Position numbers and translations under genes: made by a program. Below the pieces are notes generated by a model. The model saw only the letters and a program-made list of their open reading frames with translations. It was not told where the DNA came from and did no database searches. Shown here piece by piece: positions 7,294 through 26,948 of a stretch of DNA of 41,655 bases; position 1 is the stretch's first letter, and each line of letters begins with the position of its first letter. The DNA comes from Syntrophobacterales bacterium (GTDB taxonomy: Bacteria; Desulfobacterota; Syntrophobacteria; BM002), in the NCBI GenBank assembly GCA_050123975.1, contig JASFGC010000001.1:1-41655 (forward strand), read 5' to 3'.

Positions 7294-7410
7294 GATTTCG
7301 GATTGGGATTGCGGATTAATGAAAGGCGCACGGCACAAGGCGTAAGGCTTAAGGCAATAGTAGGCTAAATCTTTTCCTTGCGCCCTGAGCCTTGAGCCGT
7401 ATGCCTCTTT
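7294..7410. repeat. composite heptamer arrays: GGATTGC family, then AAGGC(G/T)T units, a spacer, then inverted GAGCCTT units
   Basis: gatttcg gattggg attgcgg ... caaggcg taaggct taaggca ... ctgagcc ttgagcc gtatgcc. The two halves are roughly reverse-complementary. Confidence 0.8.
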
Positions 7411-8710: not shown

Positions 8711-8740
8711 GGCATAGAGCATAGAGCATAGGGTATAGAG
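8711..8740. repeat. tandem heptamer array (GCATAGA family, ~4 units) between ackA and the ferredoxin gene
   Basis: ggcatagagcatagagcatagggtatagag, directly followed by the RBS aaaggaga. Confidence 0.85.
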
Positions 8741-10993: not shown

Positions 10994-11015
10994 AGAATCC
11001 GGATTCAAAGGACCC

Positions 11016-11086
11016 GATCTCAGGGTTTCAGGTGTCGGGTGTCAGGTGTCAGGAAAGAAAAACAAAAACACTGAAATCTGAGACCT
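11016..11086. repeat. hairpin-type repeat: CAGGTGT heptamer arm, purine-rich loop, inverted arm
   Basis: ggtttcaggtgtcgggtgtcaggtgtcagg / aaagaaaaacaaaaaca / ctgaaatctgagacc, immediately 3' of aor. Confidence 0.8.
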
Positions 11087-11209
11087 CCACAAAAGCTCGC
11101 AATCTTTACTACAAATCGAATGGGCTCTGATTTGGCCTTAAGGACCAGGTTTTCGATATTGAACAAAAAGCTGAAAGCTGACCACTTACAGCTCATATGA
11201 AAGGTTTAA

Positions 11210-12148
<939 letters not shown>

Positions 12149-13445: not shown

Positions 13446-13526
13446 TTTCAGGTGCCAGGTGTCAGGTTTCAGGTGTCAGGGAAGAAGAACAACAGAACTG
13501 AAACCTGAACACTGAACACTGAAACC
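13446..13526. repeat. hairpin-type repeat: CAGGTGT/CAGGTTT arm, purine-rich loop, inverted CTGAACA/CTGAAAC arm
   Basis: tttcaggtgccaggtgtcaggtttcaggtgtcagg / gaagaagaacaacagaa / ctgaaacctgaacactgaacactgaaacc, immediately 3' of fba. Confidence 0.85.
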
Positions 13527-13558
13527 TTAATCATTCTGATTTGTGAGGGAATACAACC

Positions 13559-16726: not shown

Positions 16727-16730
16727 TAGG

Positions 16731-16864
16731 GGATTTTGGATTGCGGATTGCAGAATCGAAGGTTTCAGGTGTCAGGTGTCAGGAAAAAGAACAATAGAAG
16801 CTGAAACCTGAAACCCAGAGATTTCTCCTTCGGAGTCCCCACCCTGCGGGCGGGGCCCCGGTTT
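16731..16864. repeat. composite intergenic element: GGATTGC units, then a CAGGTGT hairpin module, then a 47-bp GC-rich module
   Basis: The first part reads ggattttggattgcggattgcagaatcg. The hairpin module reads ggtttcaggtgtcaggtgtcagg-aaaaagaacaatagaag-ctgaaacctgaaacc. The GC-rich module reads gagatttctccttcggagtccccaccctgcgggcggggccccggttt. A near-identical copy lies at 25140-25243. Confidence 0.9.
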
Positions 16865-16933
16865 TGTGTTTAGAATTGAAGATTTGGACTTGAAAACAAT
16901 AAAGCATGAACGGGCTCTGTTACTACCTAAGCG

Positions 16934-19978: not shown

Positions 19979-20893
19979 TTATTCAAGAAGCGCTGAGCGC
20001 AAGCGTTCGAGGGTAGCGTCATCTATCTCCAGCCCCTCCTTAAGATACCCCTCAAAGGAGCCGTATTTTTGGTCTATGGCCTCGAAGGCAGCTTCCAGGT
20101 ATTCCGGCCTCACTTCCATCAAGGCGCGTACTTCGCTGCGCGGAGTTCGGAAAAGAGAGGCGCAGTTGGCAAAACATGACAGTCTGTCCGCCTCACTCTC
20201 CCAGAAGGTGTTGCTCAACATGTAGTCTTCCAGTACTGTCTCCTCAGGTACACCGAGAGAACGGAGCACTATGGCCACCGAAACTCCCGTCCGGTCCCGA
20301 CCATAGGTGCAGTGAATGAGTCCGGGCAGACCTCCGGGCTCAGCCATATTCCGTAACAGCAAGGACCACTCGGAAGTGTAGTTCAAAACATAATTCCGGT
20401 AGCATTCCAGCATCAAACCTTTGAAGTCTCCCTCTTCCACATCACCTTTCAAGATCCTTTTGGCCACTGCGTAAGGGTCAATGAGTTCACAGTCAACAGA
20501 AAAATGAACCACCTCCAGCGAGGTGACTTCTGATAGCCGGGGGGGATCCTTTTCGCGTTCCCTTTCAGTGCGCAGATCGTAGACTGTCTTCACCCCGAGG
20601 GCAACGACCGCTTCAACATGTCTCTTCCTCACTCTCTTCAGGTGATCCGAGCGGTAGAGCATCCCCCTCTTGATCTGTCTGCCGTCCATGGTGCTGTAGC
20701 CACCGAGATCTCGAAGGTTGCGGGCACCAGCAAGTTCAACACGGCTGGGATGCTCTGGTGGCGCAGTAGCGCAGCCCAAGAAAAGAAGAAGGGCAGCGAC
20801 GATGATAGCGCCGAGGGATTTCGGATTGGGGATTGGGGATTGCGGATCTCGGATTGCGGATCTCGGATTGCGGAATGCGGATTTAATAATCAT
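19979..20893 (-). CDS. lipoprotein protein-tyrosine phosphatase (Y_phosphatase3-like, CX5R)
   Basis: Catalytic loop HCTYGRDRTG. Lipobox-like LLLFLGC. I place the start at the ATG at 20893 (MIIKSAF...). The track's longer ORF is read-through of the repeat array. Confidence 0.75.
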   Translation of the reverse strand: MIIKSAFRNPRSAIRDPQSPIPNPKSLGAIIVAALLLFLGCATAPPEHPSRVELAGARNLRDLGGYSTMDGRQIKRGMLYRSDHLKRVRKRHVEAVVALGVKTVYDLRTEREREKDPPRLSEVTSLEVVHFSVDCELIDPYAVAKRILKGDVEEGDFKGLMLECYRNYVLNYTSEWSLLLRNMAEPGGLPGLIHCTYGRDRTGVSVAIVLRSLGVPEETVLEDYMLSNTFWESEADRLSCFANCASLFRTPRSEVRALMEVRPEYLEAAFEAIDQKYGSFEGYLKEGLEIDDATLERLRSALLE

Positions 20894-20934
20894 TGTGGAA
20901 TTCAGATGGCGGATCACGGATCGCGGATTTAAGA
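20816..20934. repeat. 17 in-register heptamer units (GGATTGC/GGATCTC family); units 1-11 lie inside the phosphatase CDS
   Basis: ggatttc ggattgg ggattgg ggattgc ggatctc ggattgc ggatctc ggattgc ggaatgc ggattta ataatca ttgtgga attcaga tggcgga tcacgga tcgcgga tttaaga. Confidence 0.9.
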
Positions 20935-21017
20935 TGTTCAGTATATACCTCAAAAGAGTACCATTTTCGTTCAGAATCAAAGAATCTAATAGCCAGTGGC
21001 AAGTAGGTAGTACTTAG

Positions 21018-21246
21018 GTTTCAGGTGTTCCGCCGGAGGCGGATAAGGTGTCAGCAGTAAACGGTAACTCGTTATCGACAGCCATTTAACTCAAATTTCT
21101 TGATTTCTAAATTCCTCAATTGCCCTGCGGACTCCCACCCTTCGGGCGGGTTCCCAGTTTCGAAATTCGCAATTCAAAATTCGCAATTACTTCTCTATGC
21201 CCTATGCCCCATGCTCTATGCCTTCTAAAGTCCGAAATCCGCAATC
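21018..21246. repeat. mosaic of intergenic repeat modules
   Basis: A CAGGTGT fragment is interrupted by the hairpin ccgcc-ggag-gcgg. An AATTGAGGAATT module (reverse-complemented) lies at 21090-21123. A GC-rich module lies at 21123-21160. Heptamer arrays cgaaatt cgcaatt caaaatt cgcaatt and tatgccc tatgccc catgctc tatgcct follow, then ccgaaatccgcaatc. Confidence 0.85.
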
Positions 21247-22583: not shown

Positions 22584-23639
22584 CTAGAAAACCTGAATAT
22601 TGCCGGCGTCCACTTCGGCGATTACATGCTGGATACGGTCCCAAAGAGCATCGATCTCCGCTTTTGAAAGACCGTATTGCAGTATTCCATCTTTGTACTT
22701 CGCACCCACTTTGGGGTCCAGGTTCTTCCCCACCGGTTTCGGTTGCAGAACTCCATTCTGATCTAATTCAAACTGGACTATCACGGCCAGGAAATTCAGG
22801 TCCTGCCGTTGTATCTTTCGCAACCGCTCGATGGAATTTTTGCGCAGCGCCGGCACATGAATGTCTTCCCACTGCTGAATGAAAAAATTGTATGGCCAGA
22901 AACCAAAGGAAATGCCGTTGTCAATGGAGAATACCTGACGCCGCTTGTCGTCCTTTGAAACCAGGAATTGCCCCACCCGGTTATCGCGGTGTTGGATTAG
23001 GTAGGTGAGAAGGTTAAAGTTGGACATAAAGTAGGCGTAGGTAGGATCCTTAAGAAAGCGCGACTCATCGTACAATGTGTCGGGAACTGTGACGTCCTTC
23101 ATCCATATGGAAGCAAGACCCAAAACGCAATCCGTTCCCTCCAGGGTCGCAGCAGCATACCCACCCCTCTTCATAAACCTATCACGGGATATGCAGACCG
23201 GTAGAGCAGTGGGCACCACGTAATCTTCGGGGTCCAGAAAAAACTTCTGCACATTATAAGCAGCAATCTCTTTACGCGGCGAGGTGTTGAAGCTGTCAAC
23301 CCAGCCCGGAACATTCTTTTTGAACTTCCACTTTATGTCCTTGCCGCTCACTGTGTCATGGTTGATGAGGACCAAGGCGCCGGTGGTACCACGTGCCGTC
23401 CTCTCCACCTCCTTGGCCTGTAATTTCCCTTCCACCCCTCTCTGGTATATCTTGGTCTCCAGCTCCTGGGGGGTGAACTGCCAGTTGGGAAATTCACCTT
23501 TGACACTGGGAGAGAGGGCTTTCTTGAATTGCAGTTGGCGGTCCTCGACCGTGCCCCTGCTAGCGCAACCTGCGAAAGACAAAATGAAGCCGAACAAAAG
23601 AATGAATAAAAGTCCGAACCGAAGTGCGCTCTTTTTCAT
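22584..23639 (-). CDS. lipoprotein with kinase-like catalytic motifs (PI3/PI4-kinase or protein-kinase-like)
   Basis: Signal peptide plus lipobox (LSFAGC). It has an HRD-type catalytic loop (YLIQHRDNRVGQFLV) and a DFG-equivalent (FSIDNGISFG) about 20 aa downstream. That arrangement recalls type II PI4K (..DR..N..L / IDNGLAF). The ORF itself is solid. The fold call is tentative. Confidence 0.4.
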   Translation of the reverse strand: MKKSALRFGLLFILLFGFILSFAGCASRGTVEDRQLQFKKALSPSVKGEFPNWQFTPQELETKIYQRGVEGKLQAKEVERTARGTTGALVLINHDTVSGKDIKWKFKKNVPGWVDSFNTSPRKEIAAYNVQKFFLDPEDYVVPTALPVCISRDRFMKRGGYAAATLEGTDCVLGLASIWMKDVTVPDTLYDESRFLKDPTYAYFMSNFNLLTYLIQHRDNRVGQFLVSKDDKRRQVFSIDNGISFGFWPYNFFIQQWEDIHVPALRKNSIERLRKIQRQDLNFLAVIVQFELDQNGVLQPKPVGKNLDPKVGAKYKDGILQYGLSKAEIDALWDRIQHVIAEVDAGNIQVF

Positions 23640-23801
23640 CTCCTTCTCCTTTGGATAAGGTGGTCAAGACAATGCGGTTACTATAAGTACTGTTCATGAT
23701 TGTGTAAAGCTCTTAATTCATTAGTATGATTACCTAGACTTTTCACCAGATGGATTAACTGCTATTCTAACCCCTATTTCTCATTCGGAATTATGTAGAA
23801 A

Positions 23802-23962
23802 GATGTGAGATGTGGGATGTGGGGAGGCATAGGGCATGGGGTATGGAGCATAGAGCATAGAGTAGATGGTGGATGTGGGATGTGAGATGTGAGATTGTGG
23901 ATTTTGCCTTGTGTCCTGAGCCTTGAGCCTTACGCCTCCTGACACCTGAAACCTGAAACCTA
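23802..23962. repeat. 23 consecutive in-register heptamer units that switch between five motif families
   Basis: GATGTGR x3, TAGRGCA-like x6, GATGTGR-like x6, CCTTGAG-like x5, AMACCTG x3, with no register break (parsed by hand from 23802). Confidence 0.9.
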
Positions 23963-24010
23963 ACAGAAGATGTGGAACTAAAGGTGAACATCGTGTTGCA
24001 GAAGCATAAA

Positions 24011-25102
24011 ATGATCATCGTTAGGATTGTTGGCATCGTAACGCTATTGATAGTTACCTTGTCTTCTGTAAAAGCCCTTTCAAAGGACGATAACAGTGCT
24101 CCAGACAAACTGCTGGTGGCAGTTGTAGATGCGCCGCCCTTCTACATGAAGACGCCGGATGGGCGCTGGGAGGGCCTCAGCATCGAACTCTGGCAAGCGG
24201 TCGCTCAAGAGCTGGGTGTGGAATTCGAGCTACGAGAATACAGCTTCGAACAGTTGCGGAATGCTGTTACAAAAGACAAAGTTGACGTGATACCTGCAGT
24301 GGCTGTCACAGAGGAGCGCGAAATCATTATGGACTTAAGCCATCCCTTCCTCAGGTCGGGATCGGCCATAGCGGTAACGGCAGAAGCCACTGGGCACAGC
24401 TGGCTCCGCTTCGCAGGACATCTTTTTTCATTGAACATCCTGCCGGTGATTGGTCTCCTGCTCCTGCTGGCGCTGGTAGCCGGCACAATCGTGTGGTTAT
24501 TCGAGGCTCGCCGGAACCCCAAAATGTTCGGCGGCGGAACAGTGAGAGGAGTTGGACAGGGCATCTGGTGGGCTATAGTAACTCTGACCACCGTGGGTTA
24601 CGGAGACAAGGCGCCAAAAACGCTCGGCGGGCGAATGGTTGCGCTTATCTGGATGTTCGCCTCGATTATCCTGATCGCCAGCTTTACTGCCGCCATTACA
24701 ACCTCGTTCACCGTTGGTGAATTGAGAGGCAAGGTCCGTGGCCTGAGCGATCTACCCGATGTGCGAGTAGGCTCTTTGCCCCAAACGGCAAGCTCTAACT
24801 TTCTTGCTAAACGCGGGATCGCGGTTCGACCCTTTGAGAATTCGCGTGATGGTCTGCAGGCGATCGTTGATAAAAAAATCGACGCATTCGTTTTTAATGA
24901 ATCCATATTGAAACACCTCGCGAGAACCGAGTTTCCCGGCCGAGTGCATGTTCTACCCAGCACCTTCGATCATTACTACGTGAGCATGGCCTTGCCATCT
25001 GGCAGTCCGCTCCGGGAACTGCTCAACAGGGCCTTGCTCAAGATCATAACCCAGGACGACTGGCACAGGTTGGTGCAGAGCTATTTAGGTCGCGATCGTT
25101 GA
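24011..25102 (+). CDS. GluR0-like ligand-gated K+ channel (periplasmic binding-protein lobes S1/S2 interrupted by an M1-P-M2 pore)
   Basis: Signal sequence, then an SBP_bac_3-like lobe, M1, the pore TLTTVGYGDKAP, M2 and a second SBP lobe. The ATG at 24011 is preferred over the track's GTG at 23972. Confidence 0.8.
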   Translation: MIIVRIVGIVTLLIVTLSSVKALSKDDNSAPDKLLVAVVDAPPFYMKTPDGRWEGLSIELWQAVAQELGVEFELREYSFEQLRNAVTKDKVDVIPAVAVTEEREIIMDLSHPFLRSGSAIAVTAEATGHSWLRFAGHLFSLNILPVIGLLLLLALVAGTIVWLFEARRNPKMFGGGTVRGVGQGIWWAIVTLTTVGYGDKAPKTLGGRMVALIWMFASIILIASFTAAITTSFTVGELRGKVRGLSDLPDVRVGSLPQTASSNFLAKRGIAVRPFENSRDGLQAIVDKKIDAFVFNESILKHLARTEFPGRVHVLPSTFDHYYVSMALPSGSPLRELLNRALLKIITQDDWHRLVQSYLGRDR

Positions 25103-25139
25103 GTTCGCTTGAGATGAATAAGGTTGTAGGAGGAATGGA

Positions 25140-25243
25140 GGTTTCAGGTGTCAGGTGTCAGGTGTCAGGAAAAAGACACAGAAAAGCTGAAACCCTGAGA
25201 TTTCTCCTTCGGAGTCCCCACCCTCCGGGCGGGGCCCCGGTTT
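25140..25243. repeat. second copy of the composite CAGGTGT-hairpin + 47-bp GC-rich module
   Basis: The hairpin part reads ggtttcaggtgtcaggtgtcaggtgtcagg-aaaaagacacagaaaag-ctgaaaccct. The GC-rich part reads gagatttctccttcggagtccccaccctccgggcggggccccggttt. The 47-bp part has one mismatch against 16818-16864. Confidence 0.9.
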
Positions 25244-26892: not shown

Positions 26893-26948
26893 CCTGACAC
26901 CTGAAACCTGACACCTGACACCTTTCGTTATGCCCCATGCTCTATGCC
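26893..26948. repeat. heptamer arrays ACACCTG/AAACCTG then TATGCCC/CATGCTC
   Basis: cctgacacctgaaacctgacacctgacacc ... ttatgccccatgctctatgcc. Confidence 0.85.

Follow-up and report, generated by a model that had tools for sequence, protein, structure and literature searches.

A mosaic of five heptamer arrays upstream of a GluR0-like channel gene, probably assembled by slippage and exchange of copied modules

Introduction

How does a stretch of intergenic DNA change its repeat family four times without losing a 7-nt register? The question is posed by positions 23802–23962 of a 41,655-nt stretch of DNA (the ‘window’) that opens contig JASFGC010000001.1 of a sediment bacterium of the Syntrophobacterales (assembly GCA_050123975.1). 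An initial sequence-only reading took the preserved phase as a sign of a process that adds or copies DNA in 7-nt steps, and it placed the tract in promoter space between two divergent genes. The genome (G000) comprises 3.64 Mb in 441 contigs, has a GC content of 50% and is 86.6% complete. Genomes of relatives carry similar numbers, and contig positions are given in the form C27:10431.

Among the long-unit simple sequence repeats (SSRs) of bacteria, heptamers are the commonest, and a proposed cause is polymerase slippage (Mrazek 2007, as summarized in PMC4679880 and PMC4692102). The tract is a long-unit SSR in the sense of Mrazek 2007, with head-to-tail units in the 5–11 nt range and length differences of whole units.

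Organization of the tract

The 161 bases of 23802–23962 divide end to end into 23 heptamers, exactly as first parsed. Identity within the tract is 0.714 at lag 7 and 0.54 at lag 14, against 0.19–0.34 at the remaining lags, and TRF applied to the window reports five abutting period-7 arrays from 23802 to 23961. Module A (23802–23822, plus strand, as are all the modules) has the units GATGTGA, GATGTGG and GATGTGG, and its left end coincides with the native word AGATATGG of the relative G008. Module B (23823–23864) contains six units of the GCATRGR type according to both the parse and TRF; read in register with the rest of the tract, they are GGAGGCA, TAGGGCA, TGGGGTA, TGGAGCA, TAGAGCA and TAGAGTA. 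The GATGTGR family returns in module A′ (23865–23906), where GATGGTG, GATGTGG, GATGTGA and GATGTGA are followed by the transition units GATTGTG and GATTTTG. Module C (23907–23941) consists of CCTTGTG, TCCTGAG, CCTTGAG and CCTTACG plus a hybrid unit, CCTCCTG, and aligns to TTTTCCTTGCGCCCTGAGCCTTGCTCCTTATGCC of G008. The tract ends with module D (23942–23962; ACACCTG, AAACCTG, AAACCTA), which belongs to the commonest family of the genome (169 + 90 perfect runs). Where modules A and B meet, they create a canonical G-quadruplex-type motif, GGGATGTGGGGAGGCATAGGGCATGGGG (23814–23841, plus strand; regular-expression match), in the sense orientation of the downstream channel gene.

The tract has neither an inverted partner arm at its own locus nor a gene of its own. 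The same families had been said to form separate arrays elsewhere in the window, and TRF bears this out, with GCATAGA at 8712, CCTTGAG at 7376 and CCTGACA at 26893. The five heptamer arrays of this non-coding mosaic belong to an intergenic repertoire that extends through the genus.

Flanking genes and spacer

The flanking genes are indeed divergent. The right-hand gene (23972–25102, plus strand) encodes a GluR0-like ligand-gated K+ channel with matches to the SBP_bac_3, Lig_chan and Ion_trans_2 domains, and its closest public relatives are found in MAGs of Syntrophobacteria and Deltaproteobacteria. Judged from these relatives, translation is likely to start at GTG 23984 or ATG 24011. The left-hand gene (22584–23639, minus strand) encodes a lipoprotein with the lipobox LSFAGC, read from the sequence; a Pfam search returned no family match for it, and hence nothing to back its earlier description as kinase-like.

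A 105-aa open reading frame on the minus strand (23791–24108) had been dismissed as a mere translation of the repeat. It has no family match and is passed over by a codon-usage gene finder, and it is a by-product of the repeat, which is stop-free. Elsewhere in the window, a GGATTGC-type array at 20816–20934 enters the 5′ end of the longest ORF (19979–20980, minus strand), the true start of which is probably downstream of the array.

Between the lipoprotein gene and the tract lies a non-repeat, ancestral spacer (about 23640–23801) that is 74% identical to the G008 spacer between the lipoprotein gene and a transporter gene and that probably holds the divergent promoters. It contains a promoter-like site on the minus strand (23708–23680), and the promoter/terminator scan gave no usable plus-strand match upstream of the channel gene. 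The idea that the tract itself occupies promoter space is doubtful, as the spacer retained from the ancestor is the non-repeat segment 23640–23795, outside the tract. Retention of this segment makes it more likely that the tract lies within the transcribed 5′ leader of the channel mRNA.

Copies of two composites

BLAST resolves the tract into two overlapping composites, both of which are dispersed in the genome. Composite 2 (23864–23963, plus strand) has copies with 81–93% identity over 78–105 nt at 10 loci of its own genome, and in these copies the order of the families and the hybrid junction units are identical. The order is GATGTGR_n, then GATTGTG GATTTTG (GATTKTG), then the CCTTGNG units CCTTGTG CCCTGAG CCTTGCG CCTTACG, then CCTCCTG and finally ACACCTG/AAACCTG_n. 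The composite is also present in G008, G014, G015 and metagenome contigs. Composite 1 (23802–23865, plus strand) is a GATGTGR array followed, through GAAGGCA or GGAGGCA, by a GCATRGR array. It occurs at 13 or more loci, with BLAST copies at C27:10431, C185:132, C313:181, C38:4683, C34 and C19:6829, among others.

The junction units are conserved at no fewer than 10 other loci and recur in three other genomes. They comprise GATGTGR GAAGGCA TRGRGCA; GATTGTG GATTTTG CCTTGTG CCCTGAG; and CCTTACG CCTCCTG ACACCTG. The locus that comes nearest to the full order, C68:3716–3869, is 70% identical and reads A-B-(extra module)-A′-C, and BLAST found no donor locus in the genome with the full A-B-A′-C-D order and without extra modules. 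Since copies of both halves are found elsewhere, the tract consists of two dispersed composites joined via their shared GATGTGR array.

These copies bear on the simplest local history, in which a single ancestral heptamer array diversified by point mutation in register and expanded locally, without import. Consecutive units are alike even at the four family junctions, where 14 of 28 positions are identical at lag 7 against 6–9 of 28 at other lags, and the families fall into one-mismatch neighbourhoods, as this history predicts. However, the presence of the same junction units at other loci largely refutes it, and both the lack of A-B-A′ at the G008 site and the lack of in-register similarity between unrelated neighbouring families across the genome (below) speak against it. 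We regard a purely local origin as quite improbable.

Two classical routes of dispersal were also considered. In a test for MITEs, the 11 composite copies had no fixed termini or duplications, and their ends are arrays of variable length. Mobilization of the RAYT/REP type was rejected: Y1_Tnp genes are present, yet repeats do not surround them, and none of six PF01797 matches adjoins a hairpin or an array.

Phase across family junctions

The proposal that the tract holds its register through changes of family is in part automatically true, because directly abutting arrays of unrelated families have no defined mutual phase. Its testable parts hold, namely the recurrence of GATGTGR, the junction offsets and the distances between anchors. 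GATGTGR recurs (from A to A′) after exactly 63 nt, or 9 × 7. In G000, GATTTTG lies 28 or 35 nt from the GATGTGR array in each of the eight copies measured, and its distance to ACACCTG is 42 nt in four, 49 nt in three, 56 nt in one and 50 nt in one of nine copies. When both anchors were fixed and any gap of 20–50 nt was permitted between them, all 13 copies in G000, G008, G014 and G015 gave distances of 49, 56, 63 or 70 nt, and three copies in metagenome contigs from two assemblies gave 49, 49 and 56 nt.

Individual junctions also have preferred offsets. The A→B junction takes the majority offset in 15 of 19 cases, the other four having a common +2 variant; for C→D the modal offset accounts for 6 of 9 cases, for B→ATTKCGA 15 of 24, and for GATTKCG→GATGTGR 10 of 18, with +1 in six. 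The A→B and C→D junctions of the tract carry the majority offset of the copies elsewhere, and frame-shifted variants (+1, +2) exist and recur. Random phase at such junctions across the genome would have counted against the sequence-only reading. Unrelated families that are paired at least three times provide 89 junctions, of which 66 lie at the modal offset, compared with an expectation of about 30 and a maximum of 38 in 500 simulations.

Arrays of the same family share phase in 21 of 21 cases at separations of 1–14 nt, where agreement is trivial, and in 3 of 11 cases at 15–70 nt and 3 of 7 at 71–150 nt, where counts are too sparse to be informative. For unrelated families 1 nt or more apart, the observed register makes neighbours no more alike than other rotations do (7 vs 8.9 expected, 15 vs 12.1 and 36 vs 27.9), and a general in-register morphing of one unrelated family into another was discarded.

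Conservation of the junction units at other loci indicates that phase is inherited together with the copied junction. What conserves the phase, then, is the copying of junctions together with array changes in whole units, rather than morphing in place. The suggestion of a process working in 7-nt steps stands as far as the DNA does change by whole heptamers; a special process that makes the family changes in place finds no support. Whole-unit changes are ascribed in textbooks to ordinary replication slippage.

History of the locus

In the closest relative, G008, the flanks of the locus are 88–90% identical to those of G000. Comparison of the spacer with relatives, which the sequence-only reading had called for, shows that G008 lacks modules A-B-A′ and has a transporter gene in their place. 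The order in G008 is the lipoprotein gene, a homologous 130-nt spacer, a 728-aa transporter–SBP fusion, a hairpin mosaic (AAGGCNC_n, loop, CCTTGNG_n and further modules) and the channel gene. The fusion combines a sodium:dicarboxylate-type transporter with SBP_bac_3 (G008:C103:8033–10421, corresponding to window 23795–23903); it is missing from the G000 site, and its sole match in G000 is a 49%-identical paralogue at C66. In G007 and G012, remnants of the transporter C-terminus precede the channel gene and indicate that the transporter gene is ancestral, and the 2.2-kb gene at the A-B-A′ site of G008 therefore makes the mosaic young.

Homology between the two genomes stops at AGATGTGG in G000 and at AGATATGG in G008, around the start codon of the transporter. 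It picks up again at TTTGCCTTG, where TTTGCCTTGTG... in G000 matches TTTTCCTTGCG... in G008. From these breakpoints, module A is new in part and modules B and A′ throughout, and C together with part of D represents the old right arm. As judged from this alignment, module C is the ancestral right arm of the hairpin mosaic upstream of the channel gene. About 2.25 kb has been replaced at the locus relative to G008.

Other loci show the same kinds of change. In the orthologous spacers at 13446–13558 and 19950, genomes differ by whole units. A 207-nt mosaic at 16727–16933 (GGATTGC ×2, a TCAGGTG hairpin and a GC hairpin element) corresponds to an 11-nt ‘taagggattgc’-type site in G008, G001 and G014 and forms a clean filled/empty pair with it. 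At three loci on contig C3, compared among G000, G015, G004, G014 and G008, the outer arrays are constant, with CAGGTGT on one side and AATCCGC or ACACCTG on the opposite side, and the inner modules are swapped.

A tract of this kind could in principle be an artefact of short-read MAG assembly, in which repeats have been chimerically joined or collapsed. The genome is fragmented, and many contigs of relatives end at heptamer repeats. On the other hand, the longest perfect runs within the tract are at most 31 nt, both flanks are syntenic with a single G008 contig, and the same composites with the same unit structure are found in four MAGs that were assembled independently, as well as in two metagenome assemblies. 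Given this synteny and the independent assemblies, an assembly artefact is the most improbable of the explanations considered here.

The reading that we prefer, with a probability of roughly 0.6, combines slippage with exchange of modules inside shared arrays. Each array would gain and lose whole units by slipped-strand mispairing, and modules would move between loci, most likely by recombination, gene conversion or template switching within arrays that two loci share. Because exchange inside shared arrays is possible only in register, the 7-nt rhythm would be kept, and the junctions between families would be inherited ready-made when composites are copied from one locus to another. At this locus, the left-hand partner would have been a native GATRTGG-like word, and the event would have linked it to the CCTTGNG arm that already lay to its right, displacing about 2.25 kb with the transporter gene. 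The homology used may have amounted to an 8-nt word at the left end and about 30 nt of array at the right. Such a history would need neither an enzyme working in 7-nt steps nor a selected function. Several observations weigh against it: the search for a donor with the full order and no extra modules was negative, one hairpin is inverted as a whole between G000 and G008, retained elements are more conserved than spacers, and the plus strand of the tract has a fold (the last three described below).

Heptamer arrays in the genome and the genus

The whole G000 genome contains 1,391 perfect period-7 runs of at least 15 nt, which fall into 182 families. The families with the most runs are ACACCTG (169), AATCCGC (95), AAACCTG (90), AAATCCG (76) and AGAGCAT (54). 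A tolerant scan finds 1,191 period-7 tracts that together span 37.3 kb, or 1.0% of the genome, and are 94% intergenic; a block-shuffled genome has none. The same scan finds 212 tracts of period 8, 65 of period 9 and almost none of the remaining periods. The octamer families AATGGAGT (37 runs), AATACTCC and ACTCCAGT build similar arrays and hairpins genome-wide and in the G008 spacer orthologous to window 10994–11215.

In samples with N-runs removed, five other members of the genus have about 190–430 tracts per Mb. Another genus of the same family has about 15 per Mb, and 40 kb from another family contain none. Three tandem copies of ACACCTG occur in 10 of 17 other genomes of the genus and in none of 23 genomes of other genera. 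The same triplet was found in 23 IMG/VR contigs (L083–L105) with 41–70% GC (mostly 53–70%), several of which carry further heptamer tracts; the distribution of this unit thus reaches beyond this 50%-GC genus. The genome also contains 87 copies of a 32-nt hairpin element, GGGAACCCGCCCGAAGGGTGGGAGTCCGAAGG, 34 of them within 60 nt of a heptamer tract; its sites include window 21123–21155, G000 C3:9560 and C5:8278, and a G–T pair in its stem favours one strand as RNA.

Loss of mismatch repair as the cause of the expansion was ruled out. MutL (PF01119) is present in 16 of 17 genomes of the genus and missing only from G000 and G003, both incomplete assemblies; the likeliest reason for its absence from G000 is the 13% of the genome that is unassembled.

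Hairpin architecture and PF05635 cassettes

Arrays are typically paired as inverted arms, and the composite (AGGTGTC)_n, ~17 nt, (AAACCTG)_n alone occurs 40 times. Between genes in tandem, the CAGGTGT arm lies near the upstream stop codon and the ACACCTG arm nearer the next start. An element of this kind directly follows the channel gene (25139–25196, plus strand): it consists of (TCAGGTG)n, an A-rich loop and CTGAAAC, and is the inverted counterpart of module D. At the orthologous G008 site, the whole element is reverse-complemented.

All six PF05635 genes of G000 (23S_rRNA_IVP, four-helix-bundle proteins; C322:442–756, C3:35308–35622, C4:27481–27798, C19:12000–12293, C249:1672–1968 and C249:5217–5513) lie between inverted arrays of 7- or 8-mers. 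Nine PF05635 genes in six further genomes of the class (G012, G018, G026, G029, G030 and G031) share this architecture, each with its own unit of 7–9 nt, and orthologous heptamer arrays in G001 and G014 differ in whether they contain a cassette. The cassette arms draw on the common array families, with ACACCTG as the right arm at C4:27481 and GGATTGC at C249. As the same families build the arms of cassettes and of gene-less hairpins, the arrays are best seen as arms or remnants of arms. PF05635 genes are found in 30 of 41 relatives, heptamer-poor genomes included; the gene is not a specific marker of heptamer richness, and it cannot by itself explain the expansion in the genus.

PF05635 proteins are homologous to Avd, an accessory protein of diversity-generating retroelements (DGRs; PMC10053308). 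This homology, the dominance of period 7 and the restriction of the expansion to the genus would suit a dedicated templated or enzymatic addition of heptamers, for example by a reverse transcriptase with an Avd-like activity or by a specialized polymerase, that built the tract in place. Such an activity would be expected to leave fresh products at the junctions, which are instead conserved copies. The occurrence of period-8 and period-9 arrays in the same architecture, with 8-mer and 9-mer arms in the same cassettes, argues against an enzyme specific for 7 nt, as do the PF05635 genes of heptamer-poor relatives and the general excess of heptamers in bacteria (PMC4692102). We consider a dedicated enzyme very improbable.

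The arrays might alternatively be the arms of an undescribed class of hairpin mobile elements. In full copies, inverted arms of tandem repeats would enclose the Avd-like four-helix-bundle gene; hairpins that lack a gene, and solo multi-module arms of the kind seen in this tract, would be non-autonomous derivatives of them. Copying would depend on a factor, encoded by the cassette or the host, that recognizes DNA or RNA with a 7-nt period. The inversion of a whole hairpin between G000 and G008 fits a discrete mobile unit better than it fits recombination between arrays. If such a factor exists, it would explain both the conserved grammar of the junctions and the conservation of retained copies above that of neutral spacers. 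We rate this explanation as unlikely.

Possible function in the channel leader

The position of the tract raises the possibility that it is a functional cis element, that is, a selected 5′-leader or upstream structure through which the GluR0-like gene is controlled; it might act as a long imperfect RNA hairpin, as a G-quadruplex or as a periodic array bound by protein. For the plus-strand RNA, the predicted fold is a long imperfect hairpin of −56 kcal/mol (z = −2.4) in which modules B and C pair with each other; 3 of 200 shuffled sequences do equally well, and the minus strand folds poorly by comparison (z = −1.1). The tract ends 9–49 nt upstream of the start codon, the G-quadruplex motif lies at 23814–23841, the ACACCTG end faces a gene start in 7 of 11 copies of composite 2, and GATTGCG arrays show a sense bias of 32 vs 12. 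Elements retained at orthologous sites are 95–97% identical, compared with 88–95% for coding flanks and 74–86% for non-repeat spacers, which hints at constraint and hence at function. These comparisons include L032 3455–3575 and window 13446–13530 against G008 and G015.

Several observations are difficult to reconcile with a selected role. Modules A-B-A′ are absent from the locus in the nearest relative, inner modules turn over among species, and the genes that neighbour the arrays have no common function. The composites are also found 3′ of genes and in either orientation. ACACCTG arrays are sense in 46 cases and antisense in 43, which rules out a strand or orientation rule for this family. 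A search with the Rfam 15 covariance models gave no match at E ≤ 1. We therefore regard a function in the control of the channel gene as unlikely.

Discussion

Several bacterial repeat systems resemble the arrays described here. The STRR sequences of Calothrix and Nostoc are heptanucleotide tandem repeats (Mazel et al. 1990, cited in PMC4692102). Like them, the arrays are tandem heptamers of several families at hundreds of intergenic loci, lineage-specific and of unknown function; unlike them, they belong to a member of the Syntrophobacteria (Desulfobacterota) rather than a heterocystous cyanobacterium, and their 182 families stand in conserved orders with conserved junctions. The STRR1–3 units are CCCCAGT, TTGGTCA and CAACAGT, and G000 contains no tandem copies of these sequences.

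The GGGAATC heptamers of Xanthomonas and GGGGAYT heptamers of Nostoc (Rehm et al. 2015, PMC4692102) are likewise intergenic and near the 3′ end of the upstream ORF. They often form convergent inverted pairs capable of stem–loop formation, and they vary in length between sister species at a constant position, as do the arrays here. Those genomes have essentially one unit family each, whereas many are chained in register in G000, where the GGGAATC unit is absent. The TAACTGA repeats of marine Beggiatoaceae, Cyanobacteria and Bacteroidetes (MacGregor 2015, PMC4679880) also form short arrays of heptamers immediately before start codons; those of Microcystis occur among other heptamers, and the corresponding spacers of related genomes are shorter and repeat-free. 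That system has a single dominant unit in 2–6 copies, conserved multi-family composites are not described for it, and G000 contains no TAACTGA direct repeats.

BIME and REP/REPIN sequences (PMC3116915) share with the arrays a dispersed, intergenic and hairpin-forming mosaic of modules in preferred order and variable number. The modules here are tandem heptamer arrays rather than palindromic units of 20–40 nt, and Y1 transposase genes are not flanked by repeats. The intervening sequences (IVS) with an S23p/PF05635 ORF in Coxiella and Leptospira (PMC4990558), together with Avd (PMC10053308), recall the cassettes, in which a four-helix-bundle gene also lies between stem-capable inverted repeats. 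The cassettes differ in being free-standing in intergenic spacers and in having arms of tandem 7- or 8-mers, and the tract shares only arm families with them, being without gene or partner arm.

Eukaryotic minisatellite variant repeats likewise have variant units in register, gain and lose whole units, and share interspersion patterns by descent. The present system differs in its 7-nt units, in its bacterial host and in the many dispersed copies of one interspersion pattern. What sets the present arrays apart from the known systems is the host lineage, the large number of families, and their conserved order and junction phase.

The arrays have practical consequences, since they fragment assemblies, create false ORFs such as the 105-aa frame and mark hotspots of change in gene order. 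From the standpoint of phase variation, changes by 7-nt units would alter the length of a leader and not a reading frame. The excess of heptamers in bacteria has been recognized since the STRR work of 1990 and the SSR surveys of 2007 and, to our knowledge, still lacks an explanation. The problem becomes tractable in this genus, which has many families, a grammar that can be read and junctions traceable as copies, and whose sister genomes display insertion, inversion, module swapping and one gene loss at array sites. Together with the link to Avd-like cassettes, these traceable junctions and changes make it a testable question whether such repeats are selfish hairpin elements or regulators.
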